NCBI GenBank assembly: GCA_963668445.1 | Contig: OY764335.1 | Span: 532,297 to 596,296, forward strand | Length of the DNA: 64,000 nt | Source of the DNA: an uncultured candidatus Porisulfidus sp. | Lineage (GTDB): Bacteria > Pseudomonadota > Gammaproteobacteria > Poriferisulfidales > Poriferisulfidaceae | Direction of reading: 5' to 3' | Shown: piece after piece, positions 1-42,960 of the stretch | Layout: the number at the start of each line of letters is the position of its first letter | How positions within the stretch are numbered: position 1 is the stretch's first letter | Made by a program: the position numbers and the translations under genes | The notes under the pieces: model-generated | Database searches by the model: none | Seen by the model: only the letters and a program-made list of their open reading frames with translations | What the model was told of the DNA's origin: nothing

Positions 1-424
1 TGCACGCGCGCATCTGAAATATGTATGTTGTTCCGTTGGTGAGCCCGGTTACCCATTGATAGGATCTATAGTTGGGATAGTCTCTTCCGCTGCTCGGGAT
101 TGCTGTCCACCCGCCGAACGTCCCATTCTCCGTCTTGTACCTGTACTCCACACGCGAGATCGTTCCTAGGTTCTGGGTGAGAAGCTCTAGAACTAGAGCC
201 TTGTCTAGTTCATCAACAATATATGGCTGGTTCGGCGTGTTCGGCACTGCCGCCGATGCAGGAAGCAAGCAATCGGCAGCGGCGATCAGGATGAAGAAGG
301 CAGCGAGCCTACGGCCGGATCTGATGCAACTGAGATCGCGGATCCGGGCCCGCGGTCGGAGAATAGCCGCAGGCGATGCATTCCTACGGCGCAGGCTCGG
401 GGGGGGGGGGGGGGGGGGGGGCAT
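1..424 (-). CDS. Partial (N-terminal) secreted FN3-module surface protein, paralogous to the N-terminus of the giant adhesin. The ATG at 424-422 is followed directly by a C23 tract read in frame as poly-Pro, and the gene continues beyond the window start.
   Basis: Hand translation of the minus strand gives M-P7-PSLRRRNASPAAILRPRARIRDLSCIRSGRRLAAFFILIAAADCLLPASAAVP, a signal-peptide-like hydrophobic core. It continues ...RVEYRYKTENGTFGGWTAIPSSGRDYPNYRSYQWVTGLTNGTTYIFQMRA. This matches the FN3-like modules of the giant protein (YQYRQKEGSNNYGGWTDIGSS...GLTNGTQYTFKIRAVN). There is no stop codon before position 1. It is not in the ORF track because it has no stop in the window. Confidence 0.45.
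   Translation of the reverse strand, partial: MPPPPPPPPSLRRRNASPAAILRPRARIRDLSCIRSGRRLAAFFILIAAADCLLPASAAVPNTPNQPYIVDELDKALVLELLTQNLGTISRVEYRYKTENGTFGGWTAIPSSGRDYPNYRSYQWVTGLTNGTTYIFQMRAC
399..421. repeat. Homopolymeric G/C tract, 23 nt, lying in the first codons of the minus-strand surface protein gene. Putative slipped-strand phase-variation switch.
   Basis: 23 consecutive G on the plus strand, counted directly. The minus-strand ATG at 424-422 is immediately 5' of the C-run and is in frame with the downstream ORF at the current tract length. Confidence 0.8.
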
Positions 425-1707: not shown

Positions 1708-2142
1708 ATGCCAACTTTCGTATACATGACACGCTGCGACGGCTGCGGCCACTGCGTCGATATCTGCCCTTCGGACATCATGCACATCGATAAGACCTAT
1801 CGGCGCGCCTACAACATTGAGCCCAACATGTGCTGGGAGTGCTACTCCTGCGTGAAGGCTTGCCCGCAAAATGCGATTGATGCGCGCGGCTATGCCGATT
1901 TTGCGCCTCTCGGCCACAGCGTCAGAGCGCTTCGTGAAGAAGAAAAGGGCACGATTTCCTGGAAAATCCTGTTCCGCGACGGCCGGGAGAAGAATTTCGT
2001 TTCGCCGATCCGGACCACCAAATGGGGCACGATTCCGTCCCCGGCCGAGTTGGAGGCACCCGGTGCGGAAGCGATGCAATCTCAAGAACTCGCGCACGAA
2101 CCGGATGCGCTCAACATCGACGGCGGACTACCCACGCTGTAG
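1708..2142 (+). CDS. aprB: Adenylylsulfate (APS) reductase beta subunit, an iron-sulfur protein.
   Basis: MPTFVYMTRCDGCGHCVDICPSDIMHID...CWECYSCVKACPQNAI carries two 4Fe-4S ferredoxin motifs, the AprB hallmark. An AGGAGG RBS lies at 1690-1695. Confidence 0.9.
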   Translation: MPTFVYMTRCDGCGHCVDICPSDIMHIDKTYRRAYNIEPNMCWECYSCVKACPQNAIDARGYADFAPLGHSVRALREEEKGTISWKILFRDGREKNFVSPIRTTKWGTIPSPAELEAPGAEAMQSQELAHEPDALNIDGGLPTL

Positions 2143-2171
2143 ATGGCCCACTAAAGCAAAAGCAGGAGCAC

Positions 2172-4019
2172 ATGATGGGATGGCTTAACCGAAGGAAAAC
2201 GATCCTTGTGGATTCCGATGTCCTCGTCGTCGGCGGCGGCATGGCCGGCTGCGGGGCCACGTACGAATCCAAATACTGGGGACGCGACCTGAAGGTGGTC
2301 TGCGTCGAAAAGGCGAATATCGAGCGCAGCGGCGCAGTCGCCCAAGGCCTGTACGCAATCAACTGCTACATGGGCATGCAGTGGGGCGAGAACCAGCCAG
2401 AGGATCATGTCCGCTATGCGCGCAGCGACCTCATGGGGCTTGTGCGGGAAGATTTGGGCTACGACATCGCCCGGCACGTCGATGCCACGGTGCATAAGTT
2501 TGAAGAATGGGGCCTCCCCATCATGCGGGATCCGGAAACGGGGCGCTACCAGCGCGAGGGCAAATGGCAGATCATGATCCATGGCGAAAGCTACAAGCCG
2601 ATTGTTGCTGAGGCTGCCCGCAAGGCTGCCGACGAGATATACAACCGCATCATGGTGACGCACCTGCTGATGGACGAGCTGAAACCGAACCGCGTGGCCG
2701 GTGCCGTCGGCTTCAATGTCCGCACGGGCGATTTCTATGTGTTCCGGTCCAAGGCCGTAATCGTTTGTGCCGGCGGTGCCTCGCACATATACAAGCCCCG
2801 CTCTGTGGGCGAAGGCATGGGGCGCACGTGGTATGCCCCGTGGAGCAGCGCATCGGCCTATGCGCTCCCGATTCTCGCCGGTGCCAAGATGACGCAAATG
2901 GAGAATCGGATCGTCCTTGCCCGGTTCAAGGACGGCTACGGCCCTGTCGGTGCCTACTTCCTGCACCTCAAGACTTATACGCAGAACGGCTACGGCGAGG
3001 AATACGAATCCAAATGGTATGAGCAGACGAAGGCGCTCGTCGGCGATTACATCGACAAGCATCCGACTCCGACCTGTCTGCGCAACCATGCTTTCCTTGA
3101 AGAAGTGAAAGCGGGCAGAGGCCCCATCCGCATGGTGACCAAAGAGGCTTTCCAGGATCCGCATAAGGAGACCGTGGGATGGGAGAACTTTCTCGGCATG
3201 ACCATCGGCCAAGCGGTCGTTTGGGCGTCGCAGAACATCGACCCCAAGCATACCAACCCGGAACTGACGACTTCCGAGCCCTACGTCATGGGCTCTCATG
3301 CCACCTGCTCGGGAGCTTGGGCAAGCGGCCCTTCGGATTGCGCGCCTTCGGATTATCAGTGGGGCTACAACCGCATGATGACCGTGGAAGGACTATTCGG
3401 CGCAGGGGACACGATCGGCGGCACCGCGCACAAGTTTTCGTCGGGCTCCTACACGGAAGGCCGAATCGCGGCCAAGGCAGCGGTCAATTACGTGAACGAC
3501 ATGAAAAACGAAAAGATTCGAGTCGGCGAAAAACAGTATCAGGATCTAAAGAAGGCCATCTACAAGCCCTTGGAAAATTACGAAGTCGGTCGTAACGAGA
3601 TCGTGGCGGGGACCGTCTCGCCAAGCTACATCTTGCCGATCCACGGCCTGCAACGCCTGGAAAAGATCATGGACGAATATGTCGGTGGCATTAGCACGAA
3701 CTATGTGACCAATGAGCCCTTGCTGACTCGCGGCTTGGAGCTGCTGGACATGCTGAAGGAGGACCTCGACAATATCGGGGCCGAAGACCTTCATCAACTG
3801 CAAAGGGCATGGGAGCTTCAACACCGGTTTCTGGCTTCGCAGTCGGTGGCCCACCATACGCTGTTCCGCAAGGAGACGCGTTGGCCGGGGTACTACTACC
3901 GGGGCGATTTCCCGAAACTCAACGACGAGGACTGGCACTGCTTCACTCTGTCCCGCTATGATCGGAGTTCCGACAGCTGGGAGGTGGAGAAGGCTCCCGT
4001 CCACCACATAATCGACTAA
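2172..4019 (+). CDS. aprA: Adenylylsulfate (APS) reductase alpha subunit, a flavoprotein.
   Basis: MMGWLNRRKTILVDSDVLVVGGGMAGCGATYE has an FAD-binding GxGxxG motif. The protein is about 615 aa with a fumarate-reductase/AprA-like fold and ends ...RWPGYYYRGDFPKLNDEDWHCF. RBS AGGAG lies at 2164-2168. The ORF-track start at 2022 is an upstream extension. Confidence 0.9.
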   Translation: MMGWLNRRKTILVDSDVLVVGGGMAGCGATYESKYWGRDLKVVCVEKANIERSGAVAQGLYAINCYMGMQWGENQPEDHVRYARSDLMGLVREDLGYDIARHVDATVHKFEEWGLPIMRDPETGRYQREGKWQIMIHGESYKPIVAEAARKAADEIYNRIMVTHLLMDELKPNRVAGAVGFNVRTGDFYVFRSKAVIVCAGGASHIYKPRSVGEGMGRTWYAPWSSASAYALPILAGAKMTQMENRIVLARFKDGYGPVGAYFLHLKTYTQNGYGEEYESKWYEQTKALVGDYIDKHPTPTCLRNHAFLEEVKAGRGPIRMVTKEAFQDPHKETVGWENFLGMTIGQAVVWASQNIDPKHTNPELTTSEPYVMGSHATCSGAWASGPSDCAPSDYQWGYNRMMTVEGLFGAGDTIGGTAHKFSSGSYTEGRIAAKAAVNYVNDMKNEKIRVGEKQYQDLKKAIYKPLENYEVGRNEIVAGTVSPSYILPIHGLQRLEKIMDEYVGGISTNYVTNEPLLTRGLELLDMLKEDLDNIGAEDLHQLQRAWELQHRFLASQSVAHHTLFRKETRWPGYYYRGDFPKLNDEDWHCFTLSRYDRSSDSWEVEKAPVHHIID

Positions 4020-15573: not shown

Positions 15574-15757
15574 CCGCCCACAGGGCCTCCCTTCGCGTGA
15601 TGAATCAATTATTGATTCCAAAGAATTTAAGCTATTCCGTGAATTTCATCGGTTTCATAAAAATGGCGATGTGCGCAATGCCGTTTTCTTTGCTAAGGCA
15701 GTCTTCATGGCCGGGGTGTATGGCACCCTGCGTGATGAACTTTTTCAGGAGGTAGAT

Positions 15758-16219
15758 ATGCCGACTTTCGTACGCACCGACAAATGCGACGGGTGCAAGG
15801 GCCAAGACAAGGCGGCCTGCATGTACATATGTCCTCACGATCTGATGCGTCTGGACGAGGACGGCACCGAGACCGGGCATGCCATGAAGGCATACAATCA
15901 GGAGCCGGAGCAGTGCTGGGAATGCTATGCCTGCGTCAAGATTTGTCCGCAGCAGGCGATCGAATGCCGCCACTATGCGGATGTCGTCCCGTTGGGAGCT
16001 TCGGTGCAGCCGTTGCGCGGCACGGATTCCGTCATGTGGGCCATCAAGTTTCGCAACGGCACCATGAAGCACTTCAAGTTCCCCATCCGCACCACGCCGG
16101 AAGGCTCGGCCAACCCGTTCGGCGGCGAGAACGAGGCGGTGACGGCGGAAGGCAAGGACCACAGCACTCTTTTTACCAAAGGCACGCACAGCTGCGACAT
16201 GTCGCAGTTTGCGAACTGA
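15758..16219 (+). CDS. aprB: APS reductase beta subunit, second copy.
   Basis: MPTFVRTDKCDGCKGQDKAACMYICPHDLMRLD...CWECYACVKICPQQAI. An AGGAGG RBS lies at 15748-15753. Confidence 0.9.
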   Translation: MPTFVRTDKCDGCKGQDKAACMYICPHDLMRLDEDGTETGHAMKAYNQEPEQCWECYACVKICPQQAIECRHYADVVPLGASVQPLRGTDSVMWAIKFRNGTMKHFKFPIRTTPEGSANPFGGENEAVTAEGKDHSTLFTKGTHSCDMSQFAN

Positions 16220-16259
16220 CAGCCGTGCCGGGCAGCGTGAAGGATGGGAGAGACAACCA

Positions 16260-18227
16260 ATGGCTGAATTCGGGAATCCCGAGATTGTCGAGGAAGAAGT
16301 CGATATTCTTCTGATCGGCGGCGGCATGGCGTGTTGCGGCGCGGCATTCGAAGTGTCGCGCTGGGTCGAGAAGGCTCGCGCCGAAGGCCATGACATCAAG
16401 GTCAAGCTTGTGGACAAGGCGGCCATGGACCGTTCTGGCGCCGTGGCGCAGGGGCTGTCCGCAATCAACACGTACATGGGCGAAAACGATCCGGCGGAGT
16501 ATGTGCGGTATGTGCGCGGCGACCTGATGGGCATCGTGCGCGAAGACCTCGTCTACGACGTCGGCCGGCATGTGGACGATTCGGTGCACAACTTCGAGAA
16601 GTGGGGCCTGCCGATCTGGAAACAGTCCGGCGACGAAGGCAAGCGGCTGGCCGACGGCGGCAAGCCGGTGCGCTCCGGGCGCTGGCAGATCATGATCAAC
16701 GGCGAGTCCTACAAGTGGATCGTGGCCGAGGCGGCGAAGAAGGCTTTGGGCATCGAGAACATCGACGAGCATATCTTCATCGTGCGGCTGATTACCGACA
16801 AGAACGACCCGACCTGCGTGGCGGGCGCGGCCGGCTTCAGCGTGCGCGACGACCGCGTGCACATCTACCGCTTCAAGTGCTGCCTGTTGGCATGCGGTGG
16901 TGCCGTCAATGTATTCCGCCCGCGTTCGGTGGGTGAAGGCATGGGACGGGCTTGGTACCCGGTGTGGAACGCCGGTTCCACCTACTCGATGGCGGCTGAA
17001 TGCGGCGCCGAACTGACCATGATGGAAAACCGCTTCGTGCCGGCCCGCTTCAAGGACGGCTACGGTCCGGTGGGCGCATGGTTCTTGCTGTTCAAAGCGA
17101 AGGCGATGAACGCATTCGGCGAGGACTATCAGGCCAAGAACTACGAGGATCTGAAGACCTACGGCTACGATGCCTACGCCAGCGGCCGCAAGATGGGCAC
17201 CTGCCTGCGCAACCATCTCATGATGAAGGAGTTGAAGGAGGGCCGCGGCCCGATCTTCATAGATACGCCGACGGCCATGGCCAAACTGGCGGAAAACATG
17301 ACGCCGAAGGAGATCAAGCATATGGAGGCCGAAGCATGGGAGGACTTCCTCGACATGACGATCGGCCAGTGCGGCGTGTGGGCCGGCGAGAACATCGAAC
17401 CGGACAAGGAAATGTCCGAACTGATGCCGACCGAGCCCTACCTGCTCGGCTCCCATGCCGGCTGTGCAGGCATCTGGGTGTCGGGTCCGGAAGATTTGCC
17501 GGGCACGCCCGACCACTACCATTGGGGCTACAACCGGATGGCCACCGTGTCCGGCCTGTTCACCGCCGGCGACGGCGTGGGCGCTTCAGGCCACAAGTTT
17601 TCCAGCGGGTCGCATTCCGAGGGACGGATCGCCGGCAAAGCTATGGTGCAGTACGTGCGGGACAATGCGGACTTCAAGCCGGAATTGGGCCGCTCCGTGG
17701 AGGATATCGTGGAAGAGATCTACCGCCCGGTGCGGAACTTCCTCGATCACAAGGACTACACGACCGCGATCGATGTCAATCCGCACTACATCACGCCGAA
17801 GATGTTCCAGTTCCGCCTGCAGAAAGTCATGGACGAATACGTGGCAGGCATCTCAACCATGTACCAGACGAACAAGCGCATGCTGGAACTGGCCGAACGC
17901 AAGCTGGAGATGTTGCGCGAGGATTCGCTGAAAATGCGGGCCAAGGACCTGCACGAGCTGTTGCGGGCTTGGGAGAACTACCATCGCCTGATTACTGCCT
18001 TCGCGCATATGAAGCACATCAAGTTCCGCGAGGAGACGCGCTACCCGGGCTACTACTACCGGGCCGACTACATGCGGATCGATGACGAGAACTGGAAGTG
18101 CTTCGTCAACTCCCAATTCGATCGGGACACCGGCGAGTGGAGCATGAAGAAGGTTCCGTATGTGCAACTGATCAAGGCCAGCGAGGAAGAGCCGGAGGGC
18201 ATGGGTCGCGTTGGCAGTGCTTGCTGA
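16260..18227 (+). CDS. aprA: APS reductase alpha subunit, second copy.
   Basis: MAEFGNPEIVEEEVDILLIGGGMACCGAAFE...RYPGYYYRADYMRIDDENWKCF is paralogous to 2172-4019. Confidence 0.9.
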   Translation: MAEFGNPEIVEEEVDILLIGGGMACCGAAFEVSRWVEKARAEGHDIKVKLVDKAAMDRSGAVAQGLSAINTYMGENDPAEYVRYVRGDLMGIVREDLVYDVGRHVDDSVHNFEKWGLPIWKQSGDEGKRLADGGKPVRSGRWQIMINGESYKWIVAEAAKKALGIENIDEHIFIVRLITDKNDPTCVAGAAGFSVRDDRVHIYRFKCCLLACGGAVNVFRPRSVGEGMGRAWYPVWNAGSTYSMAAECGAELTMMENRFVPARFKDGYGPVGAWFLLFKAKAMNAFGEDYQAKNYEDLKTYGYDAYASGRKMGTCLRNHLMMKELKEGRGPIFIDTPTAMAKLAENMTPKEIKHMEAEAWEDFLDMTIGQCGVWAGENIEPDKEMSELMPTEPYLLGSHAGCAGIWVSGPEDLPGTPDHYHWGYNRMATVSGLFTAGDGVGASGHKFSSGSHSEGRIAGKAMVQYVRDNADFKPELGRSVEDIVEEIYRPVRNFLDHKDYTTAIDVNPHYITPKMFQFRLQKVMDEYVAGISTMYQTNKRMLELAERKLEMLREDSLKMRAKDLHELLRAWENYHRLITAFAHMKHIKFREETRYPGYYYRADYMRIDDENWKCFVNSQFDRDTGEWSMKKVPYVQLIKASEEEPEGMGRVGSAC

Positions 18228-18849: not shown

Positions 18850-19079
18850 GGGCGCATTATAGGTTTCACGGCATTAGGCCGGGCCTTTATTTGGTTCGGA
18901 CAGCGTATGCCTGGAAGAAGCGATCTTGCTGAGACGTCATGGCGCGATGGGCTCTTCCATATCCATAGTATACGAATAATCTATATTTGCAAAAATGTAT
19001 AGAAAATTCTATTTTTTATGCATATCATTCGGGTGGTTGGATGTTATTTAATATAAATATATGTTAAGTATAATATTTA

Positions 19080-20239
19080 ATGATTTCCAAAGAGATTCGG
19101 CATAAGTTGAATCAAGAGAAAATCTCCAAGAGAAAAAGGAGGCATATGTATAGAAAAATCTCAAAACTATTGCGCAGGTTCAACAACATATTGGAACAAA
19201 GGCAGGCGTCGGCCAATCGGGCTTTGGGCGAAGTCAAAGGCCGGGCTGCCAGCATCCCCAATCAGGATATTCTGATTGATACGTTGGTATTGCAGGAAGC
19301 GTGTTCCAGTTCTGAAATCGAAAACATTGTGACCAGACAAGATGAATTATTTCGGGCGGATAGCGGACCTCAGGTTTCGGATTCTCCGGAAGCCAAAGCA
19401 GTCTTGCGCTACCGAGTGGCTTTCAAAGAAGGGTACCAACTTCTGCAAAAGCATGGAAACATCACGAATGAGACGCTAATCACAATGTACCGCCGGATTA
19501 AACTTGCGGATGACAGATTTCGCAAGAAGCCTGTTTATATCGGCAATCCTGCAATGCAGGAGATCATCTGCACGCCGCCCAAAGATCCTGCGGAGATTCA
19601 AGAATTGATGAACGGTCTTGAACGCTTTATCAATGACGATGCCATGAGTGTGCTGGACCCATTAATAAAAATGGCTCTCATCCATTACCAGTTCGAAAGC
19701 ATTCACCCGTTCTCGGATGGCAACGGGCGCGTCGGACGCATCCTCAATATGCTATACCTCACGAAATCGAAGTTGCTTGACAATCCCATTTTGTATCCGA
19801 GCCGAATGATTGCGCAGACCAAAGAACGGTACTACCGGCTCTTCACCGAAGTGCGGGAGCAGGAGGCGTGGCATGAATGGGTGGCCTACATGCTGGGCAT
19901 CGTCGAGCAGTCCGCGCACTCTTCGCTGCATATGGTCTCGCGCATTCGCGAGTTGATGGCCGAATACGAAAATCGAATTCGCGGGCAATTTGGATCCTAC
20001 TCGCAGGATTTGCTCAATAATCTGTTTCGCCACCCCTATTCGCGCGTGGCGCATCTGAACATGACCTCGGAGTCGCGAGGCTGACCGCGACTCGTTATCT
20101 GGATGCGCTGGCAGATGCAGGACTTCTGGAAAAGCGTCGCGTGGGCCGGAGCAACTACTACATCAATCTGCCTCTGGTCGAGATTTTCACGGAAATCTCG
20201 CATCGCTCGGATCCGGGCCAATTCATGCGAATCACGTGA
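19080..20239 (+). pseudogene. fic: Fic/DOC-family protein, class II, with a Fic_N domain. The gene is frameshifted near 20055-20085 and its C-terminal winged-helix domain continues in the +2 frame to 20239.
   Basis: Fic motif HPFSDGNGRVGR. The Fic_N region is IDTLVLQEACSSSEIENIVTRQDELF, which includes an inhibitory (S/T)xxxE(G/N) motif. Frame 0 stops at 20084. Frame +2 encodes LTATRYLDALADAGLLEKRRVGRSNYYINLPLVEIFTEI, the typical Fic C-terminal wHTH. The gene lies in a lower-GC islet. An alternative start is the ATG at 19146. Confidence 0.6.
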
Positions 20240-24012: not shown

Positions 24013-25272
24013 TCATGGCGCGAACGGCGGCAGTTTGCGTTCGACGGCAATGTTTTTGAGCTTGGCATAAGTCGGCAGGCCTTGTCGGAACGGCGGAGGC
24101 TCTTCGCCGCGGATGAGCGGCTCCAAGTACGCACGGCAGCGCTTGGTGATGCCGAAGCCATTGCGGGTGATGTAGCTGCGCGGCATCATGCGTTCCCGGT
24201 TGGCGACGCGGGATAGGGCGACATGGCCAATTTTCCAACGGTACGGACGATCGGAGGTGCGCACGATCGTCGGCATCACGGCCGTGTGCCCGGCAACGGC
24301 CAGCCGGACGGCGGCGCGGCCGACCCCATACGCCTGTTGCAGGTCGGTCGCGGAAGCGATGTGGCGAGCGGCGCGTTGCAGATAGTCGGCGACTGCCCAG
24401 TGGTACTTGTAGCCGAGGCGCTCTTTGACCATGTGCGCGAGAATCAGGGCGTTGCCGCCGAGTTGCGCATGGCCGAAGGCATCGCTAGAGCCGACCTCGG
24501 CCAGAAATTTGCCGTCCGGGGTGCGTACGCCTTCGGACGCGACGATGGCGCAGAAGCCGAAGCGTTGCACGCAGTCGTCGACGCGGGCTAGGAAGGCCTT
24601 GGCATCGAACGGGATTTCCGGGAACAGGATGAGATGCGGGGCGTCGCCGGGGGCTTCGGCGGCCAAGCCGCCGGCCGCGGCGATCCAGCCGGCGTGGCGG
24701 CCCATTACTTCGAGAATGAACACTTTGGTGGATGTCGCCGCCATGCCGGCGACATCCAGACCGGCCTCGCGGATCGAGGTGCCGACGTATTTCGCGACTG
24801 AGCCGAAGCCGGGGCAGTTGTCGGTGACGGGCAGATCGTTGTCGACCGTCTTCGGCACACCGATGCAGCGAAGAGGATATTTCAGCGAGCGAGCGAGCTG
24901 GGCGATCTTCCAGGCAGTGTCTTGCGAATCGCCGCCGCCGTTGTAGAAGAAATAGCCGATATCGTGCGCGTCGAACACCTCGATCAGGCGTTCGTATTCG
25001 CGCCGGTTCTCTTCGAGGCCCTTGAGTTTATAGCGGCAGGAGCCGAACGCGGCGCCCGGCGTGTTGCGCAGCGCGGCGATCGTGCGCGAGGTCTCGCGAT
25101 GGGTGTCGATCAGGTCTTCATGCAGAGCGCCGAGGATGCCGTGGCGCCCGGCATACACGCGGCCGATATGCGTTCGGCAGCCCCGGGCTGTTTCGATTAC
25201 GCCGCAGGCCGAAGCGTTGATGACGGCCGTCGGCCCTCCCGACTGGGCGTAGAAGGCGTTGCGGGGGCTCAT
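24013..25272 (-). CDS. pfp: Pyrophosphate-dependent 6-phosphofructokinase.
   Basis: MSPRNAFYAQSGGPTAVINASACGVIETAR...GGGDSQDTAWKIA...PKTVDNDL are PFK family signatures, in a roughly 420-aa PPi-type architecture. Confidence 0.8.
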   Translation of the reverse strand: MSPRNAFYAQSGGPTAVINASACGVIETARGCRTHIGRVYAGRHGILGALHEDLIDTHRETSRTIAALRNTPGAAFGSCRYKLKGLEENRREYERLIEVFDAHDIGYFFYNGGGDSQDTAWKIAQLARSLKYPLRCIGVPKTVDNDLPVTDNCPGFGSVAKYVGTSIREAGLDVAGMAATSTKVFILEVMGRHAGWIAAAGGLAAEAPGDAPHLILFPEIPFDAKAFLARVDDCVQRFGFCAIVASEGVRTPDGKFLAEVGSSDAFGHAQLGGNALILAHMVKERLGYKYHWAVADYLQRAARHIASATDLQQAYGVGRAAVRLAVAGHTAVMPTIVRTSDRPYRWKIGHVALSRVANRERMMPRSYITRNGFGITKRCRAYLEPLIRGEEPPPFRQGLPTYAKLKNIAVERKLPPFAP

Positions 25273-25649
25273 GGCGCCTCCGATGCTCGTCCGCGACCGG
25301 TCATGCGTGCATAGTCGGACTGCATCTGCAGCAGTTGCATGACGCATTCGGCAAGTTCCGTGTAGTCGGTCACATCCGGGCCCATCTGCTGCAAGCCATT
25401 ATAGAAAAATGGGCATCGGTAGTGGCTCTCGCCGGCCTTGACGATGAGGAAGTTGCAGTCGTTGGCGGCCCAGAACAGGGCCGGGCCGGGCGTGCCGCTT
25501 TCGGCCTTCGGGCGCAGGCCGATTTCCATGTCGGCCGCATGCAGTTCCACGGCACCTTGGCCCCAACGTTCCTTGACGGCGGTTTGGGTCACCCGTTTTT
25601 CACGATCCGTGAAGTCGGCGATGTTCGAAGGCACGGCGGATGCGGCCAT
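25269..25649 (-). CDS. Hypothetical protein co-transcribed upstream of pfp.
   Basis: 126-aa ORF whose stop overlaps the pfp ATG. No recognisable motif. Confidence 0.35.
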   Translation of the reverse strand: MAASAVPSNIADFTDREKRVTQTAVKERWGQGAVELHAADMEIGLRPKAESGTPGPALFWAANDCNFLIVKAGESHYRCPFFYNGLQQMGPDVTDYTELAECVMQLLQMQSDYARMTGRGRASEAP

Positions 25650-29884: not shown

Positions 29885-32800
29885 TCAGAACATCAGTTCG
29901 ATTTTCAGATGGATGCTCAAGCCATTTGCCTCGTTGCTGGCGGCATGTTCGCCGAACACATCCGCGCGCCATTGCGCCATGGCGCCTGTCTCGCGCCCGA
30001 ACCGCACACCCAATCGCATTTTCGAGAGGTCGCTGCTGTGTTCCGCCTTGCCAAACCACTCGATCGGCCGCCTCAGCCACGGCGACCACATGCCGTATCC
30101 GACTTCCACTCCCATGGCTGCGGATTCATTCGGTGCTGATCGATCAGCCAGATCGGCGGCGTTCTCCTCCCACATCGTGGACGAGCTGTCGGTTGGCGCG
30201 CCCCATCGCGGGGACAGCATCAGGGACAGCCCGCGACCGTCCGCGTCTGGATTTTTCTTCAGCGTCACACTCACGCCCCGTTCTTCGTAGTCGCTCTCGG
30301 AATGTGCTGCCAGCCATCGCCCTTGTACATCCAGTGCCCAGCCGTCGACCACACTTTCGAAATACATGCCGCCGGCCAATTCCAGCCCGACTCCTTCGGA
30401 CCCGTTGCCACCATCGTAGCGGGCAAACGCCTGCGCGTACGGATTCGTGAAGTTGCCAGCCTCGTCCTCGATTGTCCGGGAATATTCCATTCCGGCACGG
30501 ACCTGATGCGCATTCGCTGTCAGGTCGTCAATCTCCAGAATCTCGCCATCGGCTTCCAGCTGGACGTATCCGGCATCGGCCATCAGTGCCCAGCGATGGT
30601 CCTTCCGCTCCGATTCCCCGAGTTCTCGGCGCAAGCCCACCGAAGCCATCTGCATCGATAGGTCTCTGTGCTCGGAATCCGCGCTGTCCATGCCGCTACG
30701 CAAGCTCTCCAATTCGATATCCCCCTCGCCTGCGCCCAGCATCATCCAAACCCCTACACCATCTCCCAAGTCCACATGGGCGTAAGGATGCACACTGGTC
30801 AGTTTCATCTCCATCGTGCCCGACCCGTTTAGACCTTGCTCGCCGAAAGAATAATCCGAATGCGCCCGACGATGCGATACCGCAACTCCGGCGATCCATT
30901 GTTTCTGAATGCGGGCATCAACGCCTACGTAGAACGAGCGCATGTCGCTTTCGTAATGGCCATTGCCATTGATTTCACCGGAGCTTTCCGTGTAGTCGCC
31001 CTGACCCCAGACGCTCCATTGCGCATGCGACGCTTCACTGCCCGCATTGAGGGAGAAGTCAAAAGTGCTTTCCAACAACCATTCGGTTGTGCTGATGCGA
31101 GAGCCCTCGTCCGTTACCGAGCCTGCTTTGAACCTTTCGATAACATCTAACGCGGCTGGCTGCGTCAAGGTTCGACGGTCGGATTCCGATGTGTCTGGCT
31201 CCAGTCCGGCCATACGAATCACGTCGTCGGGCGGCTTCGCAAACCTCCAATTTAGCACTTGCTGCGTACTTGCCATCATGCTGCCTGCGATTTGGCTCAA
31301 GGAGGCTTCCAAGACTGCCTTTTCCTCAATGGTATCTGTTTGCACCGCGATGGTAAAGGCGGCGGCGGCACTGTTGCCGTCGGCGTCGGTGGCGGTGTAG
31401 GTGTAGCCGGTGGCGGCCTGGGTGCCGCTGGGGGTGCCGGACAGGGTGCGGGTGGCGGCGTCGAAGCTCAGCCCGGGGGGCAGCGCCGGGGTGCCGCTGG
31501 TGCGCGCCAGCGCGTAGCTGAGCGCGCCGTTGCCGCCGCTGGCCAGCGGCAACGCCAAGTCCGTGATTCTGCGGCCTCGTGCATACACCTGGTCGGCAAT
31601 TGTGTCGTTCAAGGTTGGAGGGCCCAAGGGGGGGCTCTCTATAGATTCCTGCACCATGATGGTGAAGGTGGCGGTGGCGGCGTCGCCGTCGGCGTCGGTG
31701 GCGGTGTAGGTGTAGCCGGTGGCGGCCTGGGTGCCGCTGGGGGTGCCGGACAGGGTGCGGGTGGCGGCGTCGAAGCTCAGCCCGGGGGGCAGCGCCGGGG
31801 TGCCGCTGGTGCGCGCCAGCGCGTAGCTGAGCGCGCCGTTGCCGCCGGTCGCGGCCGGCAGCACCAGATCGGTGATCGGGCGGCCCTCGGAGTAGGCCTG
31901 GTCGGACGGCGCGGTCACGGCGGGCTGGCTGTTGGACTCGACCGCGAGGCTGAAGGTCGCCGAGTCGGTCTCGCCGTCGGCGTCGGTGACCGCGTACTTC
32001 AGGCTGGCGGTGGCGGCGCTGCCCGGCGTGGTGCCGGACAGGGTGCGGGTGGCGGCGGCGAACGACAGCCAGGCGGGCAGCGCGGTGCCGTCTTCCTTGG
32101 TCAGCGCGTAGCTCAGCGGGGCGTTGCCGCCGGTGGCGGCCGGCAGCTGGTGCGAGACGCTGCGCCCGGTGCCGTAGGTGAGGCCGGCCTGGGACGGCAG
32201 GTCCGGGGCGCTGTTCGCGGCCACCGCGATGGTGAAGGTGGCGGTGGCGGCGTCGCCGTCGGCGTCGGTGGCGGTGTAGGTGTAGCCGGTGGCGGCCTGG
32301 GTGCCGCTGGGGGTGCCGGACAGGGTGCGGGTGGCGGCGTCGAAGCTCAGCCCGGGGGGCAGCGCCGGGGTGCCGCTGGTGCGCGCCAGCGCGTAGCTGA
32401 GCGCGCCGTTGCCGCCGGTCGCGGCCGGCAGCACCAGATCGGTGATCGGGCGGCCCTCGGAGTAGGCCTGGTCGGACGGCGCGGTCACGGCGGGCTGGCT
32501 GTTGGACTCGACCGCGAGGCTGAAGGTCGCCGAGTCGGTCTCGCCGTCGGCGTCGGTGACCGCGTACTTCAGGCTGGCGGTGGCGGCGCTGCCCGGCGTG
32601 GTGCCGGACAGGGTGCGGGTGGCGGCGGCGAACGACAGCCAGGCGGGCAGCGCGGTGCCGTCTTCCTTGGTCAGCGCGTAGCTCAGCGGGGCGTTGCCGC
32701 CGGTGGCGGCCGGCAGCTGGTGCGAGACGCTGCGCCCGGTGCCGTAGGTGAGGCCGGCCTGGGACGGCAGGTCCGGGGCGCTGTTCGCGGCCACCGCGAT

Positions 32801-35800
32801 GGTGAAGGTGGCGGTGGCGGCGTCGCCGTCGGCGTCGGTGGCGGTGTAGGTGTAGCCGGTGGCGGCCTGGGTGCCGCTGGGGGTGCCGGACAGGGTGCGG
32901 GTGGCGGCGTCGAAGCTCAGCCCGGGGGGCAGCGCCGGGGTGCCGCTGGTGCGCGCCAGCGCGTAGCTGAGCGCGCCGTTGCCGCCGGTCGCGGCCGGCA
33001 GCACCAGATCGGTGATCGGGCGGCCCTCGGAGTAGGCCTGGTCGGACGGCGCGGTCACGGCGGGCTGGCTGTTGGACTCGACCGCGAGGCTGAAGGTCGC
33101 CGAGTCGGTCTCGCCGTCGGCGTCGGTGACCGCGTACTTCAGGCTGGCGGTGGCGGCGCTGCCCGGCGTGGTGCCGGACAGGGTGCGGGTGGCGGCGGCG
33201 AACGACAGCCAGGCGGGCAGCGCGGTGCCGTCTTCCTTGGTCAGCGCGTAGCTCAGCGGGGCGTTGCCGCCGGTGGCGGCCGGCAGCTGGTGCGAGACGC
33301 TGCGCCCGGTGCCGTAGGTGAGGCCGGCCTGGGACGGCAGGTCCGGGGCGCTGTTCGCGGCCACCGCGATGGTGAAGGTGGCGGTGGCGGCGTCGCCGTC
33401 GGCGTCGGTGGCGGTGTAGGTGTAGCCGGTGGCGGCCTGGGTGCCGCTGGGGGTGCCGGACAGGGTGCGGGTGGCGGCGTCGAAGCTCAGCCCGGGGGGC
33501 AGCGCCGGGGTGCCGCTGGTGCGCGCCAGCGCGTAGCTGAGCGCGCCGTTGCCGCCGGTCGCGGCCGGCAGCACCAGATCGGTGATCGGGCGGCCCTCGG
33601 AGTAGGCCTGGTCGGACGGCGCGGTCACGGCGGGCTGGCTGTTGGACTCGACCGCGAGGCTGAAGGTCGCCGAGTCGGTCTCGCCGTCGGCGTCGGTGAC
33701 CGCGTACTTCAGGCTGGCGGTGGCGGCGCTGCCCGGCGTGGTGCCGGACAGGGTGCGGGTGGCGGCGGCGAACGACAGCCAGGCGGGCAGCGCGGTGCCG
33801 TCTTCCTTGGTCAGCGCGTAGCTCAGCGGGGCGTTGCCGCCGGTGGCGGCCGGCAGCTGGTGCGAGACGCTGCGCCCGGTGCCGTAGGTGAGGCCGGCCT
33901 GGGACGGCAGGTCCGGGGCGCTGTTCGCGGCCACCGCGATGGTGAAGGTGGCGGTGGCGGCGTCGCCGTCGGCGTCGGTGGCGGTGTAGGTGTAGCCGGT
34001 GGCGGCCTGGGTGCCGCTGGGGGTGCCGGACAGGGTGCGGGTGGCGGCGTCGAAGCTCAGCCCGGGGGGCAGCGCCGGGGTGCCGCTGGTGCGCGCCAGC
34101 GCGTAGCTGAGCGCGCCGTTGCCGCCGGTCGCGGCCGGCAGCACCAGATCGGTGATCGGGCGGCCCTCGGAGTAGGCCTGGTCGGACGGCGCGGTCACGG
34201 CGGGCTGGCTGTTGGACTCGACCGCGAGGCTGAAGGTCGCCGAGTCGGTCTCGCCGTCGGCGTCGGTGACCGCGTACTTCAGGCTGGCGGTGGCGGCGCT
34301 GCCCGGCGTGGTGCCGGACAGGGTGCGGGTGGCGGCGGCGAACGACAGCCAGGCGGGCAGCGCGGTGCCGTCTTCCTTGGTCAGCGCGTAGCTCAGCGGG
34401 GCGTTGCCGCCGGTGGCGGCCGGCAGCTGGTGCGAGACGCTGCGCCCGGTGCCGTAGGTGAGGCCGGCCTGGGACGGCAGGTCCGGGGCGCTGTTCGCGG
34501 CCACCGCGATGGTGAAGGTGGCGGTGGCGGCGTCGCCGTCGGCGTCGGTGGCGGTGTAGGTGTAGCCGGTGGCGGCCTGGGTGCCGCTGGGGGTGCCGGA
34601 CAGGGTGCGGGTGGCGGCGTCGAAGCTCAGCCCGGGGGGCAGCGCCGGGGTGCCGCTGGTGCGCGCCAGCGCGTAGCTGAGCGCGCCGTTGCCGCCGGTC
34701 GCGGCCGGCAGCACCAGATCGGTGATCGGGCGGCCCTCGGAGTAGGCCTGGTCGGACGGCGCGGTCACGGCGGGCTGGCTGTTGGACTCGACCGCGAGGC
34801 TGAAGGTCGCCGAGTCGGTCTCGCCGTCGGCGTCGGTGACCGCGTACTTCAGGCTGGCGGTGGCGGCGCTGCCCGGCGTGGTGCCGGACAGGGTGCGGGT
34901 GGCGGCGGCGAACGACAGCCAGGCGGGCAGCGCGGTGCCGTCTTCCTTGGTCAGCGCGTAGCTCAGCGGGGCGTTGCCGCCGGTGGCGGCCGGCAGCTGG
35001 TGCGAGACGCTGCGCCCGGTGCCGTAGGTGAGGCCGGCCTGGGACGGCAGGTCCGGGGCGCTGTTCGCGGCCACCGCGATGGTGAAGGTGGCGGTGGCGG
35101 CGTCGCCGTCGGCGTCGGTGGCGGTGTAGGTGTAGCCGGTGGCGGCCTGGGTGCCGCTGGGGGTGCCGGACAGGGTGCGGGTGGCGGCGTCGAAGCTCAG
35201 CCCGGGGGGCAGCGCCGGGGTGCCGCTGGTGCGCGCCAGCGCGTAGCTGAGCGCGCCGTTGCCGCCGGTCGCGGCCGGCAGCACCAGATCGGTGATCGGG
35301 CGGCCCTCGGAGTAGGCCTGGTCGGACGGCGCGGTCACGGCGGGCTGGCTGTTGGACTCGACCGCGAGGCTGAAGGTCGCCGAGTCGGTCTCGCCGTCGG
35401 CGTCGGTGACCGCGTACTTCAGGCTGGCGGTGGCGGCGCTGCCCGGCGTGGTGCCGGACAGGGTGCGGGTGGCGGCGGCGAACGACAGCCAGGCGGGCAG
35501 CGCGGTGCCGTCTTCCTTGGTCAGCGCGTAGCTCAGCGGGGCGTTGCCGCCGGTGGCGGCCGGCAGCTGGTGCGAGACGCTGCGCCCGGTGCCGTAGGTG
35601 AGGCCGGCCTGGGACGGCAGGTCCGGGGCGCTGTTCGCGGCCACCGCGATGGTGAAGGTGGCGGTGGCGGCGTCGCCGTCGGCGTCGGTGGCGGTGTAGG
35701 TGTAGCCGGTGGCGGCCTGGGTGCCGCTGGGGGTGCCGGACAGGGTGCGGGTGGCGGCGTCGAAGCTCAGCCCGGGGGGCAGCGCCGGGGTGCCGCTGGT

Positions 35801-38800
35801 GCGCGCCAGCGCGTAGCTGAGCGCGCCGTTGCCGCCGGTCGCGGCCGGCAGCACCAGATCGGTGATCGGGCGGCCCTCGGAGTAGGCCTGGTCGGACGGC
35901 GCGGTCACGGCGGGCTGGCTGTTGGACTCGACCGCGAGGCTGAAGGTCGCCGAGTCGGTCTCGCCGTCGGCGTCGGTGACCGCGTACTTCAGGCTGGCGG
36001 TGGCGGCGCTGCCCGGCGTGGTGCCGGACAGGGTGCGGGTGGCGGCGGCGAACGACAGCCAGGCGGGCAGCGCGGTGCCGTCTTCCTTGGTCAGCGCGTA
36101 GCTCAGCGGGGCGTTGCCGCCGGTGGCGGCCGGCAGCTGGTGCGAGACGCTGCGCCCGGTGCCGTAGGTGAGGCCGGCCTGGGACGGCAGGTCCGGGGCG
36201 CTGTTCGCGGCCACCGCGATGGTGAAGGTGGCGGTGGCGGCGTCGCCGTCGGCGTCGGTGGCGGTGTAGGTGTAGCCGGTGGCGGCCTGGGTGCCGCTGG
36301 GGGTGCCGGACAGGGTGCGGGTGGCGGCGTCGAAGCTCAGCCCGGGGGGCAGCGCCGGGGTGCCGCTGGTGCGCGCCAGCGCGTAGCTGAGCGCGCCGTT
36401 GCCGCCGGTCGCGGCCGGCAGCACCAGATCGGTGATCGGGCGGCCCTCGGAGTAGGCCTGGTCGGACGGCGCGGTCACGGCGGGCTGGCTGTTGGACTCG
36501 ACCGCGAGGCTGAAGGTCGCCGAGTCGGTCTCGCCGTCGGCGTCGGTGACCGCGTACTTCAGGCTGGCGGTGGCGGCGCTGCCCGGCGTGGTGCCGGACA
36601 GGGTGCGGGTGGCGGCGGCGAACGACAGCCAGGCGGGCAGCGCGGTGCCGTCTTCCTTGGTCAGCGCGTAGCTCAGCGGGGCGTTGCCGCCGGTGGCGGC
36701 CGGCAGCTGGTGCGAGACGCTGCGCCCGGTGCCGTAGGTGAGGCCGGCCTGGGACGGCAGGTCCGGGGCGCTGTTCGCGGCCACCGCGATGGTGAAGGTG
36801 GCGGTGGCGGCGTCGCCGTCGGCGTCGGTGGCGGTGTAGGTGTAGCCGGTGGCGGCCTGGGTGCCGCTGGGGGTGCCGGACAGGGTGCGGGTGGCGGCGT
36901 CGAAGCTCAGCCCGGGGGGCAGCGCCGGGGTGCCGCTGGTGCGCGCCAGCGCGTAGCTGAGCGCGCCGTTGCCGCCGGTCGCGGCCGGCAGCACCAGATC
37001 GGTGATCGGGCGGCCCTCGGAGTAGGCCTGGTCGGACGGCGCGGTCACGGCGGGCTGGCTGTTGGACTCGACCGCGAGGCTGAAGGTCGCCGAGTCGGTC
37101 TCGCCGTCGGCGTCGGTGACCGCGTACTTCAGGCTGGCGGTGGCGGCGCTGCCCGGCGTGGTGCCGGACAGGGTGCGGGTGGCGGCGGCGAACGACAGCC
37201 AGGCGGGCAGCGCGGTGCCGTCTTCCTTGGTCAGCGCGTAGCTCAGCGGGGCGTTGCCGCCGGTGGCGGCCGGCAGCTGGTGCGAGACGCTGCGCCCGGT
37301 GCCGTAGGTGAGGCCGGCCTGGGACGGCAGGTCCGGGGCGCTGTTCGCGGCCACCGCGATGGTGAAGGTGGCGGTGGCGGCGTCGCCGTCGGCGTCGGTG
37401 GCGGTGTAGGTGTAGCCGGTGGCGGCCTGGGTGCCGCTGGGGGTGCCGGACAGGGTGCGGGTGGCGGCGTCGAAGCTCAGCCCGGGGGGCAGCGCCGGGG
37501 TGCCGCTGGTGCGCGCCAGCGCGTAGCTGAGCGCGCCGTTGCCGCCGGTCGCGGCCGGCAGCACCAGATCGGTGATCGGGCGGCCCTCGGAGTAGGCCTG
37601 GTCGGACGGCGCGGTCACGGCGGGCTGGCTGTTGGACTCGACCGCGAGGCTGAAGGTCGCCGAGTCGGTCTCGCCGTCGGCGTCGGTGACCGCGTACTTC
37701 AGGCTGGCGGTGGCGGCGCTGCCCGGCGTGGTGCCGGACAGGGTGCGGGTGGCGGCGGCGAACGACAGCCAGGCGGGCAGCGCGGTGCCGTCTTCCTTGG
37801 TCAGCGCGTAGCTCAGCGGGGCGTTGCCGCCGGTGGCGGCCGGCAGCTGGTGCGAGACGCTGCGCCCGGTGCCGTAGGTGAGGCCGGCCTGGGACGGCAG
37901 GTCCGGGGCGCTGTTCGCGGCCACCGCGATGGTGAAGGTGGCGGTGGCGGCGTCGCCGTCGGCGTCGGTGGCGGTGTAGGTGTAGCCGGTGGCGGCCTGG
38001 GTGCCGCTGGGGGTGCCGGACAGGGTGCGGGTGGCGGCGTCGAAGCTCAGCCCGGGGGGCAGCGCCGGGGTGCCGCTGGTGCGCGCCAGCGCGTAGCTGA
38101 GCGCGCCGTTGCCGCCGGTCGCGGCCGGCAGCACCAGATCGGTGATCGGGCGGCCCTCGGAGTAGGCCTGGTCGGACGGCGCGGTCACGGCGGGCTGGCT
38201 GTTGGACTCGACCGCGAGGCTGAAGGTCGCCGAGTCGGTCTCGCCGTCGGCGTCGGTGACCGCGTACTTCAGGCTGGCGGTGGCGGCGCTGCCCGGCGTG
38301 GTGCCGGACAGGGTGCGGGTGGCGGCGGCGAACGACAGCCAGGCGGGCAGCGCGGTGCCGTCTTCCTTGGTCAGCGCGTAGCTCAGCGGGGCGTTGCCGC
38401 CGGTGGCGGCCGGCAGCTGGTGCGAGACGCTGCGCCCGGTGCCGTAGGTGAGGCCGGCCTGGGACGGCAGGTCCGGGGCGCTGTTCGCGGCCACCGCGAT
38501 GGTGAAGGTGGCGGTGGCGGCGTCGCCGTCGGCGTCGGTGGCGGTGTAGGTGTAGCCGGTGGCGGCCTGGGTGCCGCTGGGGGTGCCGGACAGGGTGCGG
38601 GTGGCGGCGTCGAAGCTCAGCCCGGGGGGCAGCGCCGGGGTGCCGCTGGTGCGCGCCAGCGCGTAGCTGAGCGCGCCGTTGCCGCCGGTCGCGGCCGGCA
38701 GCACCAGATCGGTGATCGGGCGGCCCTCGGAGTAGGCCTGGTCGGACGGCGCGGTCACGGCGGGCTGGCTGTTGGACTCGACCGCGAGGCTGAAGGTCGC

Positions 38801-41800
38801 CGAGTCGGTCTCGCCGTCGGCGTCGGTGACCGCGTACTTCAGGCTGGCGGTGGCGGCGCTGCCCGGCGTGGTGCCGGACAGGGTGCGGGTGGCGGCGGCG
38901 AACGACAGCCAGGCGGGCAGCGCGGTGCCGTCTTCCTTGGTCAGCGCGTAGCTCAGCGGGGCGTTGCCGCCGGTGGCGGCCGGCAGCTGGTGCGAGACGC
39001 TGCGCCCGGTGCCGTAGGTGAGGCCGGCCTGGGACGGCAGGTCCGGGGCGCTGTTCGCGGCCACCGCGATGGTGAAGGTGGCGGTGGCGGCGTCGCCGTC
39101 GGCGTCGGTGGCGGTGTAGGTGTAGCCGGTGGCGGCCTGGGTGCCGCTGGGGGTGCCGGACAGGGTGCGGGTGGCGGCGTCGAAGCTCAGCCCGGGGGGC
39201 AGCGCCGGGGTGCCGCTGGTGCGCGCCAGCGCGTAGCTGAGCGCGCCGTTGCCGCCGGTCGCGGCCGGCAGCACCAGATCGGTGATCGGGCGGCCCTCGG
39301 AGTAGGCCTGGTCGGACGGCGCGGTCACGGCGGGCTGGCTGTTGGACTCGACCGCGAGGCTGAAGGTCGCCGAGTCGGTCTCGCCGTCGGCGTCGGTGAC
39401 CGCGTACTTCAGGCTGGCGGTGGCGGCGCTGCCCGGCGTGGTGCCGGACAGGGTGCGGGTGGCGGCGGCGAACGACAGCCAGGCGGGCAGCGCGGTGCCG
39501 TCTTCCTTGGTCAGCGCGTAGCTCAGCGGGGCGTTGCCGCCGGTGGCGGCCGGCAGCTGGTGCGAGACGCTGCGCCCGGTGCCGTAGGTGAGGCCGGCCT
39601 GGGACGGCAGGTCCGGGGCGCTGTTCGCGGCCACCGCGATGGTGAAGGTGGCGGTGGCGGCGTCGCCGTCGGCGTCGGTGGCGGTGTAGGTGTAGCCGGT
39701 GGCGGCCTGGGTGCCGCTGGGGGTGCCGGACAGGGTGCGGGTGGCGGCGTCGAAGCTCAGCCCGGGGGGCAGCGCCGGGGTGCCGCTGGTGCGCGCCAGC
39801 GCGTAGCTGAGCGCGCCGTTGCCGCCGGTCGCGGCCGGCAGCACCAGATCGGTGATCGGGCGGCCCTCGGAGTAGGCCTGGTCGGACGGCGCGGTCACGG
39901 CGGGCTGGCTGTTGGACTCGACCGCGAGGCTGAAGGTCGCCGAGTCGGTCTCGCCGTCGGCGTCGGTGACCGCGTACTTCAGGCTGGCGGTGGCGGCGCT
40001 GCCCGGCGTGGTGCCGGACAGGGTGCGGGTGGCGGCGGCGAACGACAGCCAGGCGGGCAGCGCGGTGCCGTCTTCCTTGGTCAGCGCGTAGCTCAGCGGG
40101 GCGTTGCCGCCGGTGGCGGCCGGCAGCTGGTGCGAGACGCTGCGCCCGGTGCCGTAGGTGAGGCCGGCCTGGGACGGCAGGTCCGGGGCGCTGTTCGCGG
40201 CCACCGCGATGGTGAAGGTGGCGGTGGCGGCGTCGCCGTCGGCGTCGGTGGCGGTGTAGGTGTAGCCGGTGGCGGCCTGGGTGCCGCTGGGGGTGCCGGA
40301 CAGGGTGCGGGTGGCGGCGTCGAAGCTCAGCCCGGGGGGCAGCGCCGGGGTGCCGCTGGTGCGCGCCAGCGCGTAGCTGAGCGCGCCGTTGCCGCCGGTC
40401 GCGGCCGGCAGCACCAGATCGGTGATCGGGCGGCCCTCGGAGTAGGCCTGGTCGGACGGCGCGGTCACGGCGGGCTGGCTGTTGGACTCGACCGCGAGGC
40501 TGAAGGTCGCCGAGTCGGTCTCGCCGTCGGCGTCGGTGACCGCGTACTTCAGGCTGGCGGTGGCGGCGCTGCCCGGCGTGGTGCCGGACAGGGTGCGGGT
40601 GGCGGCGGCGAACGACAGCCAGGCGGGCAGCGCGGTGCCGTCTTCCTTGGTCAGCGCGTAGCTCAGCGGGGCGTTGCCGCCGGTGGCGGCCGGCAGCTGG
40701 TGCGAGACGCTGCGCCCGGTGCCGTAGGTGAGGCCGGCCTGGGACGGCAGGTCCGGGGCGCTGTTCGCGGCCACCGCGATGGTGAAGGTGGCGGTGGCGG
40801 CGTCGCCGTCGGCGTCGGTGGCGGTGTAGGTGTAGCCGGTGGCGGCCTGGGTGCCGCTGGGGGTGCCGGACAGGGTGCGGGTGGCGGCGTCGAAGCTCAG
40901 CCCGGGGGGCAGCGCCGGGGTGCCGCTGGTGCGCGCCAGCGCGTAGCTGAGCGCGCCGTTGCCGCCGGTCGCGGCCGGCAGCACCAGATCGGTGATCGGG
41001 CGGCCCTCGGAGTAGGCCTGGTCGGACGGCGCGGTCACGGCGGGCTGGCTGTTGGACTCGACCGCGAGGCTGAAGGTCGCCGAGTCGGTCTCGCCGTCGG
41101 CGTCGGTGACCGCGTACTTCAGGCTGGCGGTGGCGGCGCTGCCCGGCGTGGTGCCGGACAGGGTGCGGGTGGCGGCGGCGAACGACAGCCAGGCGGGCAG
41201 CGCGGTGCCGTCTTCCTTGGTCAGCGCGTAGCTCAGCGGGGCGTTGCCGCCGGTGGCGGCCGGCAGCTGGTGCGAGACGCTGCGCCCGGTGCCGTAGGTG
41301 AGGCCGGCCTGGGACGGCAGGTCCGGGGTTAGCCTCAGTGGCGTTGCTTTTGCTGTATCTGAAGGGGGGCTGCCACCGGTCGAATTCACCGCACGAATCT
41401 GAAAGGAGTATTCCACCCCGGTGGTCAAGTTGCCAACCGTGTGGCTTGTGGTATTTGCTCCGCTTTTGTTGATATTTCCCCAGATCTCGAATACGCTATC
41501 CGTTTCGGTCTTTTTCCGTATTTGGTATGTCGTAATGTTCGTGTCGGACGGATCCGTCCATTCGAGCAAGACCTGCTGATCGCCTGCAGTGGCCGCGAAG
41601 CCGCTCGGTTTCGCCGGCCTCGGCCTCGGTGTCACCGACACCTCGTCCGATTCTGTGCCATTGCCCACTGGGTTGACCGCTCTGATCTTGAACGTGTATT
41701 GGGTTCCGCTGGTCAATCCGGTGACCGTGTGGCTTGTGGTGGTCGCGCTGCTGGAGCCGATATCCGTCCACCCGCCATAATTGTTCGAGCCTTCTTTTTG

Positions 41801-42895: not shown

Positions 42896-42936
42896 GTCCT
42901 GCAACCATTTCTCAATGGCCTTACGACAGGGCCGAT

Positions 42937-42960
42937 GGGGGGGGGGGGGGGGGGGGGGGG
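42937..42960. repeat. Homopolymeric G/C tract, 24 nt, 41 nt upstream of the giant adhesin start codon. Putative phase-variation switch.
   Basis: 24 consecutive G on the plus strand, counted directly. It lies between the adhesin ATG (42895) and the AT-rich upstream region. Confidence 0.8.

Follow-up and report, generated by a model that had tools for sequence, protein, structure and literature searches.

The window, the whole stretch of DNA that was analysed, is 64 kb long, has a G+C content of 63.6% and contains only two homopolymers longer than 7 nt, a G23 run at 399-421 (tract 1) and a G24 run at 42937-42960 (tract 2). The next-longest homopolymer after both tracts is 7 nt, and from the base composition of the window about 2 × 10−6 occurrences of a G run of at least 23 nt are expected, which rules out chance for the tracts. 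Both are G on the plus strand and so poly-C on the coding strand of two minus-strand genes: tract 1 (C23) forms codons 2-9 (Pro8) of a partial gene, p1, and tract 2 (C24) is found 41 nt upstream of the ATG, at 42895, of a giant gene. The two long tracts of the window are therefore at the 5′ ends of its two FN3-type genes. The sequence-only reading had reported tracts of 23 and 24 nt at these 5′ ends, and we confirm them at 399-421 and 42937-42960. Its placement of them holds for tract 1, which is inside the ORF after the ATG at 424-422, but not for tract 2, which falls outside the coordinates of the giant gene.

We also observed that the GC skew is positive across the whole window and that the cumulative skew rises monotonically. 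This points to the plus strand as the leading one. In that case the transcription of both genes with tracts would run head-on to replication, and the leading strand would carry the poly-G at each of the two loci.

p1 is a partial ORF of 141 codons on the minus strand (1-424), which leaves the window at position 1. Its start codon, an ATG at 422-424 identified by three-frame translation and direct reading, abuts tract 1: the order on the minus strand is GC-ATG-C23-G, and this ATG is in frame with the FN3 ORF. The encoded order is Met-Pro8, a 27-aa Arg-rich leader, the signal-peptide-like segment LAAFFILIAAADCLLPASA and a first FN3 module; the product starts with MPPPPPPPPSLRRRNASPAAILRPRARIRDLSCIRSGRR-LAAFFILIAAADCLLPASA-AVPN..., where a hydrophobic core with an A-S-A motif is followed by FN3. 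The ATG at 424-422 is the sole in-frame ATG, GTG or TTG before this hydrophobic core, so that a secreted p1 product must be translated through tract 1. An in-frame stop is present 4 codons upstream of the ATG, and the alternative frames end 4 and about 45 codons past the tract. A sigma-70-like promoter match is found upstream at 465-493 of the minus strand (TTGGCA, 17 nt, TAAAGT, with a TG extension), in a search that gave 2 sites against 0.2 expected from shuffles, and it implies that transcription would start about 34 nt upstream of the ATG. Read from its sequence, locus 1 has the layout of a classical translational homopolymer switch, with what would be the ON frame in the assembly.

The giant gene (29885-42895, minus strand) encodes a protein of 4336 aa with, in order, a signal peptide, an N-terminal module of about 115 aa, 4 fn3 domains, 35 He_PIG stretches and a PF03797 beta-barrel. 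The signal peptide, MCKEPKAVHLLLLLAVLLTGEA, was read by eye from the sequence, without a predictor. The Autotransporter beta-domain PF03797 occupies the final 481 aa (E = 1.5e-8; 35.1 bits, with the cut-off at 26), and the match to TIGR01414 is just under the cut-off of that family. A C-terminal barrel preceded by a signal peptide and a repetitive passenger is the organization of classical type Va autotransporters. By its predicted architecture the giant protein is an adhesin of this class, and its domains support the view that the gene encodes a surface protein. The He_PIG stretches form a tandem array (31658-41328, minus strand) in which a 570-nt unit is repeated 17 times with 100% DNA identity. 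Each unit corresponds to two He_PIG domains. This array is likely to be a second source of rapid length variation in the giant gene, and its assembled copy number calls for comparison with the reads. The N-terminal module (42461-42810, minus strand) carries the motif W.ATL....G.....L.DDDF.F.G..Y.I. and matches no Pfam or NCBIfam family.

Upstream of the giant gene, its frame is open through C24 as far as the codons ATG (43042) and TTG (43090). A putative in-frame N-terminal extension of 49 codons (42896-43042, minus strand) would read MDFRKALASIDPARPANGSRRRIPNITA-Pro8-HRPCRKAIEKWLQD from the ATG at 43042-43040, which has GGAAGG 10 nt upstream; since two of the three frames are open across tract 2, the open frame is weak evidence. 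The best sigma-70-like promoter match of this leader (43224-43253, minus strand; TTGACA, 18 nt, TAAGAT) agrees with the consensus at 10 of 12 positions and is a consensus match only, from a search that gave 2 sites against 1.1 expected. It is about 265 nt upstream of tract 2, which places the tract inside the transcript. Tract 2 would thus either encode the Pro8 of a 49-codon extension or belong to a 5′ UTR some 320 nt long.

Other arrangements of this leader were considered. No −35/−10 pair brackets tract 2, which rules out a promoter-spacer model for it. An invertible-promoter switch was also rejected: the sole inverted repeat is a 12-nt pair with 83% identity (42886-42897 and 43253-43264). 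No recombinase ORF is present within about 1.3 kb, and neither leader has a match in Rfam at an E of 1 or below. In the predicted mRNA folds the poly-C is unpaired and the ribosome-binding site is not sequestered, with no significant structure.

Both tracts are flanked by a module of 46 nt, M, with the core TAGGAATGC..CGCCTGC.GC.ATTC...CCGGATC. The first copy (341-386, minus strand; TAGGAATGCATCGCCTGCGGCTATTC...CCGGATC) follows tract 1 after 12 nt; it is on the coding strand of p1 and encodes RNASPAAILRPRARI of the p1 leader. The second copy (42970-43012) is 9 nt from tract 2 on the plus strand, opposite to the giant gene, and points away from it. Aligned locally, the two copies score 39, whereas none of 300 shuffles exceeded 30, and a 26-nt degenerate M pattern has 2 matches in place of the 0 expected. 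M thereby ties the two 5′ regions by what would be common descent and argues strongly against an artefact. The second copy is part of a short divergent ORF (42934-43051, plus strand) composed of an ATG, G23, 9 nt and M, which comes to a dead end after 38 codons (MGGGGGGGGCNVRNAPPAAIRWPGRINAGQSLPEIHAR and a stop) and in which M has the same reading frame as in p1. With this order, the divergent ORF resembles the 5′ cassette of p1 in an inverted and vestigial form, with G replacing C. The homopolymer is not complemented between the M copies, so no simple inversion gives the arrangement of locus 2.

No further copy of M was detected in the window, in 130 fetched loci or in JGI metagenomes (0 pattern matches), and the two matches in viral contigs are both chance matches without a tract. 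Blastn of the region upstream of locus 2 against plasmids gave no match. To the right of locus 2, tblastn found no p1-like pseudogene remnant beyond M.

The relationship between p1 and the giant protein was proposed at first from a shared module, as paralogy. The FN3 similarity is real and modest: by BLASTP, the 141 aa of p1 are 33-43% identical to the N-terminal part of the giant protein that contains the Pfam fn3 domains (best E = 7e-9). An HMM built from five FN3 copies matches only p1 and the giant ORF in a six-frame scan of the window; p1 scores 109 bits with this custom HMM, being itself one of the five training sequences, and its truncated 141-aa product has no match in Pfam. The shared signature, YQYRQKE..NYGGWTDI..GLTNGT.Y.F..RAVN, is also present in FN3 proteins of other phyla, and so taken alone it marks an FN3 subfamily and not a paralogy within this genome.

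In the genome collections, the sole relatives of the N-terminal region of the giant protein are from Dehalococcoidia/Chloroflexi MAGs (31-48% identity). In proteins of these MAGs the N-terminal module recurs, sometimes repeated, before FN3 domains (L004, 1886-5152; L007, 6001-6927), and it appears to be an uncharacterised domain common to several phyla. These Chloroflexi relatives point to a horizontal transfer. One of them is from the sponge metagenome sample SB0662, other bins of which are listed among the sponge-associated Entoporibacteria (PMC7883664). This sponge relative raises the possibility of a host-associated habitat.

We then compared the tracts with homologous loci elsewhere, that is, eight relatives of the N-terminal or FN3 region of the giant protein (L001-L004, L007, L008, L129 and L130). 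None of the eight has a G/C run of at least 12 nt; the long G/C tract is not a family-wide trait. The sponge Chloroflexi homologue carries a C11 (L004, 1858-1868), 17 nt upstream of a signal-peptide ATG and in frame with an upstream TTG. This C11 is a weaker echo of the layout of locus 2. Another homologue (L007) has an A9 about 170 nt upstream. A search for homologues of p1 gave no match. A scan of JGI metagenomes for an ATG followed by C20 or more returned more than 120 loci. Most of these either come close to a contig end (about 130 nt or less) or consist of low-complexity sequence of eukaryote-like character, and not one is followed by a credible bacterial gene for a secreted protein. The scan is uninformative on how general such tracts are, but it illustrates the appearance of artefactual or assembly-terminal tracts, from which the two tracts of the window differ.

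The neighbours of the two loci in the window include aprM, aprB, aprA, katG, argH, lysA and a second aprBA-like pair near 16-18 kb, as well as PFK, gshA, a TerB-DnaJ gene, metK, ahcY and gshB. The start of aprM is probably at 892 (259 aa, as in its relatives) rather than at 841, since 841 is inside a −10 match. The two aprBA-type pairs, both on the plus strand (1708-4019 and about 15600-18227), are separated by about 12 kb; in one relative (L006) they are neighbours. The second AprA-like protein (672 aa) matches FAD_binding_2 weakly. AprA shares 93% identity with proteins from two uncultured contigs, including a circular one of 1.8 Mb, and about 85% with MAG proteins of Burkholderiales, Betaproteobacteria and Gammaproteobacteria. 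A sulfur-oxidising proteobacterium is thus a plausible host, judging from the gene content. The designation of the organism as a chemolithoautotroph is plausible from AprM, the two aprBA pairs and the relatives of AprA, but these genes do not demonstrate autotrophy or a free-living habit.

In both nearest AprA relatives, a p1-like gene upstream of aprM is absent, and so are long homopolymers. In one of them (L006, 7244-9461) aprM comes immediately after PFK; the PFK of the window is inverted and about 23 kb away (24013-25347). With p1 and its tract upstream of aprM where the relative has PFK, locus 1 is at a synteny breakpoint. GC3 is about 0.60 in both FN3 genes, against 0.75-0.78 in aprA, gshA and metK; by this measure both FN3 genes seem compositionally foreign and fit accessory genes. 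Elsewhere in the window, a Fic/DOC-family gene (Fic_N and Fic; 19080-20084, plus strand) is in a patch with 46% GC over 19001-20000, compared with 64% for the window. This patch is probably a small horizontally acquired island.

Taken together, we favour with moderate confidence the reading in which both tracts are genuine, hypermutable runs of poly(dG)·poly(dC) in transcribed 5′ leaders, which would act as slipped-strand contingency switches. At p1, translation would begin at the ATG that abuts the tract, and one C gained or lost would bring a stop after 4 or about 45 codons (OFF); C23 would correspond to ON. At the giant gene, two readings of the mechanism can be proposed. If the tract is the Pro8 of an extension that starts at 43042, it would be a translational switch or a coupling device. 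If it is in a 5′ UTR, it would tune expression without gating it. The promoter-like sites upstream of both tracts and the C11 of the sponge homologue count for the switch reading, the lack of long G/C runs at the eight homologous loci counts against it, and with 23 and 24 nt the tracts are well within the range of G/C runs, about 7-8 nt or more, that is associated with contingency loci. Only p1 also has the placement expected of such a locus; the tract of the giant gene is not in a promoter spacer.

Slippage at G/C runs rises with their length, as established in Campylobacter, Neisseria, Haemophilus and Bordetella. From this length dependence in other bacteria we infer the hypermutability of the tracts; their reversibility and any benefit are assumed. 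The slippage rate at 23-24 nt should be high enough for mixed populations. These runs exceed the length found in classical switches, RNA polymerase slippage on runs of 23-24 nt could blur ON and OFF, and eight N-terminal prolines would by themselves stall or slow ribosomes. The tract lengths were read from a single assembly; a long-read consensus length can be off by about 1 nt at such runs, which makes statements such as "both in frame" or "both ON" soft. The case for a switch is, at present, architectural. The proposal of a phase-variable family therefore needs to be narrowed: p1 has the anatomy of a translational switch, the on/off effect is uncertain at the giant gene, and the "family" consists of two genes.

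A frameshift at tract 2 need not silence the giant gene, because downstream of the tract the gene has an ATG and a signal peptide of its own. It may then be that only locus 1 is functional, and that tract 2 with M is a vestigial, rearranged 5′ cassette in the long leader of the giant gene, with little or no on/off effect. We regard this as rather unlikely overall, even though several features of locus 2 agree with it: the start and signal peptide of the giant protein come 41 nt after the tract, M is directed away from the gene, the divergent ORF has just 38 codons, no promoter element extends across the tract, and the predicted leader fold leaves the poly-C unpaired and the ribosome-binding site free. 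On the other hand, a functionless run of 24 nt should decay fast, yet tract 2 has kept its full length; the giant ORF can be read in register from the ATG at 43042 across C24 without a stop; and both long tracts of the window are at FN3 genes.

Another explanation, which we judge to be unlikely and to rank below the vestigial cassette, is that the tracts are not adaptive switches but have a structural role in the DNA or are scars of a rearrangement. Possible roles would be a template-strand G-quadruplex that attenuates transcription, a hot spot for recombination or rearrangement, or a junction left by an acquired mobile M cassette. In its favour are the G on the plus strand at both loci regardless of the orientation of M, which a simple inversion cannot explain, the synteny breakpoint at locus 1 with the inverted PFK at 24013-25347, and the foreign composition of both genes. 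Nevertheless, no recombinase gene, strong inverted repeats or extra M copies were found nearby or elsewhere in the sequences searched, and a scar would not easily produce the exact succession at p1 of an ATG, the tract and an ORF in frame. In addition, so long a tract would be hypermutable anyway, and the expression of p1 would vary regardless of how the tract arose.

The switch reading can be extended to a portable 5′ cassette, composed of an ATG, a 23-nt G/C homopolymer and M, which would install a hypermutable switch on acquired adhesin genes of an environmental or symbiotic sulfur oxidiser. The tract of locus 2 would then serve two divergent frames, one that leads through poly-Pro to the autotransporter and one that leads through poly-Gly to a p1-type leader. 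We consider this extension to be quite improbable and put it forward as a speculation.

Finally, that the tracts are sequencing or assembly artefacts (two-colour poly-G or an error of homopolymer consensus) is very improbable: it might be suspected from the G on the same strand at both tracts, from the position of tract 1 just 399 nt from the window start and from the JGI matches to ATG and C20 or longer, most of which are within about 130 nt of a contig end with no credible gene after them, but tract 2 is well inside the window, with some 21 kb between it and the end, the tracts are at the starts of the two FN3 genes, adjoin a shared 46-nt module and an ATG and are in frame, neither shows the read or contig end and incoherent context of a two-colour poly-G artefact, and the 17 identical 570-nt repeats were resolved, presumably by long reads, to which poly-G dark-cycle artefacts do not apply.

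If the slipped-strand switch reading is true, a secreted FN3 protein, and possibly an autotransporter of 4336 aa, would be gated in a proteobacterium of the sulfur-oxidiser type, and the idea of contingency loci would be carried beyond medicine, to attachment, to the exposure of phage receptors or to contacts between symbiont and host. The succession of a start codon, a long G/C run and a signal peptide would also be a signature with which long-read environmental genomes can be screened. Simple-repeat phase variation has been documented almost entirely in host-adapted pathogens. According to a review of 2025, ocean and soil bacteria are still a knowledge gap for phase variation (PMC11868660). 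The novelty of finding it beyond pathogens had been overstated, however, since homopolymeric tracts were proposed by Orsi et al. in 2010 as a general device of gene inactivation in prokaryotes (PMC2831843). The locus shares with that device, claimed beyond pathogens, a tract at the 5′ end and what would be a reversible inactivation by frameshift; it differs in that the device described consists of short poly(A)/poly(T) runs of up to about 7 nt, whereas the tracts of the window are very long and made of G/C (PMC2831843).

The closest parallels are contingency loci with mononucleotide repeats in the 5′ part of adhesin and autotransporter genes. Such repeats include the A9/G runs of Bartonella badE as well as a C11 found in an autotransporter barrel protein (PMC11466379), and phase-variable poly-G/C tracts are described in Campylobacter, Neisseria and Helicobacter (PMC8355987, PMC5084427, PMC2823697). 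As in those loci, a G/C homopolymer is found in the first codons, the frame would set expression and the targets are accessory adhesins, the likeness being here one of architecture alone. Unlike them, the tracts have 23-24 nt in place of the usual 7-17, one tract abuts the start codon, a 46-nt module is present, and the host resembles a sulfur-oxidising proteobacterium and not a known pathogen. It is plausible that the locus is an added case of a homopolymer contingency locus on adhesin genes, with a mechanism that we infer.

In Bordetella, a betaproteobacterium, the fim2 and fim3 fimbrial promoters contain poly-C tracts that cause transcriptional phase variation. Locus 2 is similar in having a poly-C upstream of a gene for a surface structure, but tract 2 is not between recognisable promoter elements and would be inside the transcript. 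The giant protein also resembles the "eukaryote-like" secreted proteins of sponge-associated bacteria that are rich in FN3 and cadherin/He_PIG domains: its N-terminal module with FN3 is 31-48% identical to its nearest relatives, from Dehalococcoidia/Chloroflexi MAGs, one of which is from the sponge sample SB0662. In contrast to it, the Chloroflexi homologues have no long G/C tracts (the longest is the C11) and are not autotransporters; compared with them, the giant protein alone fuses the N-terminal module to a proteobacterial type Va barrel.
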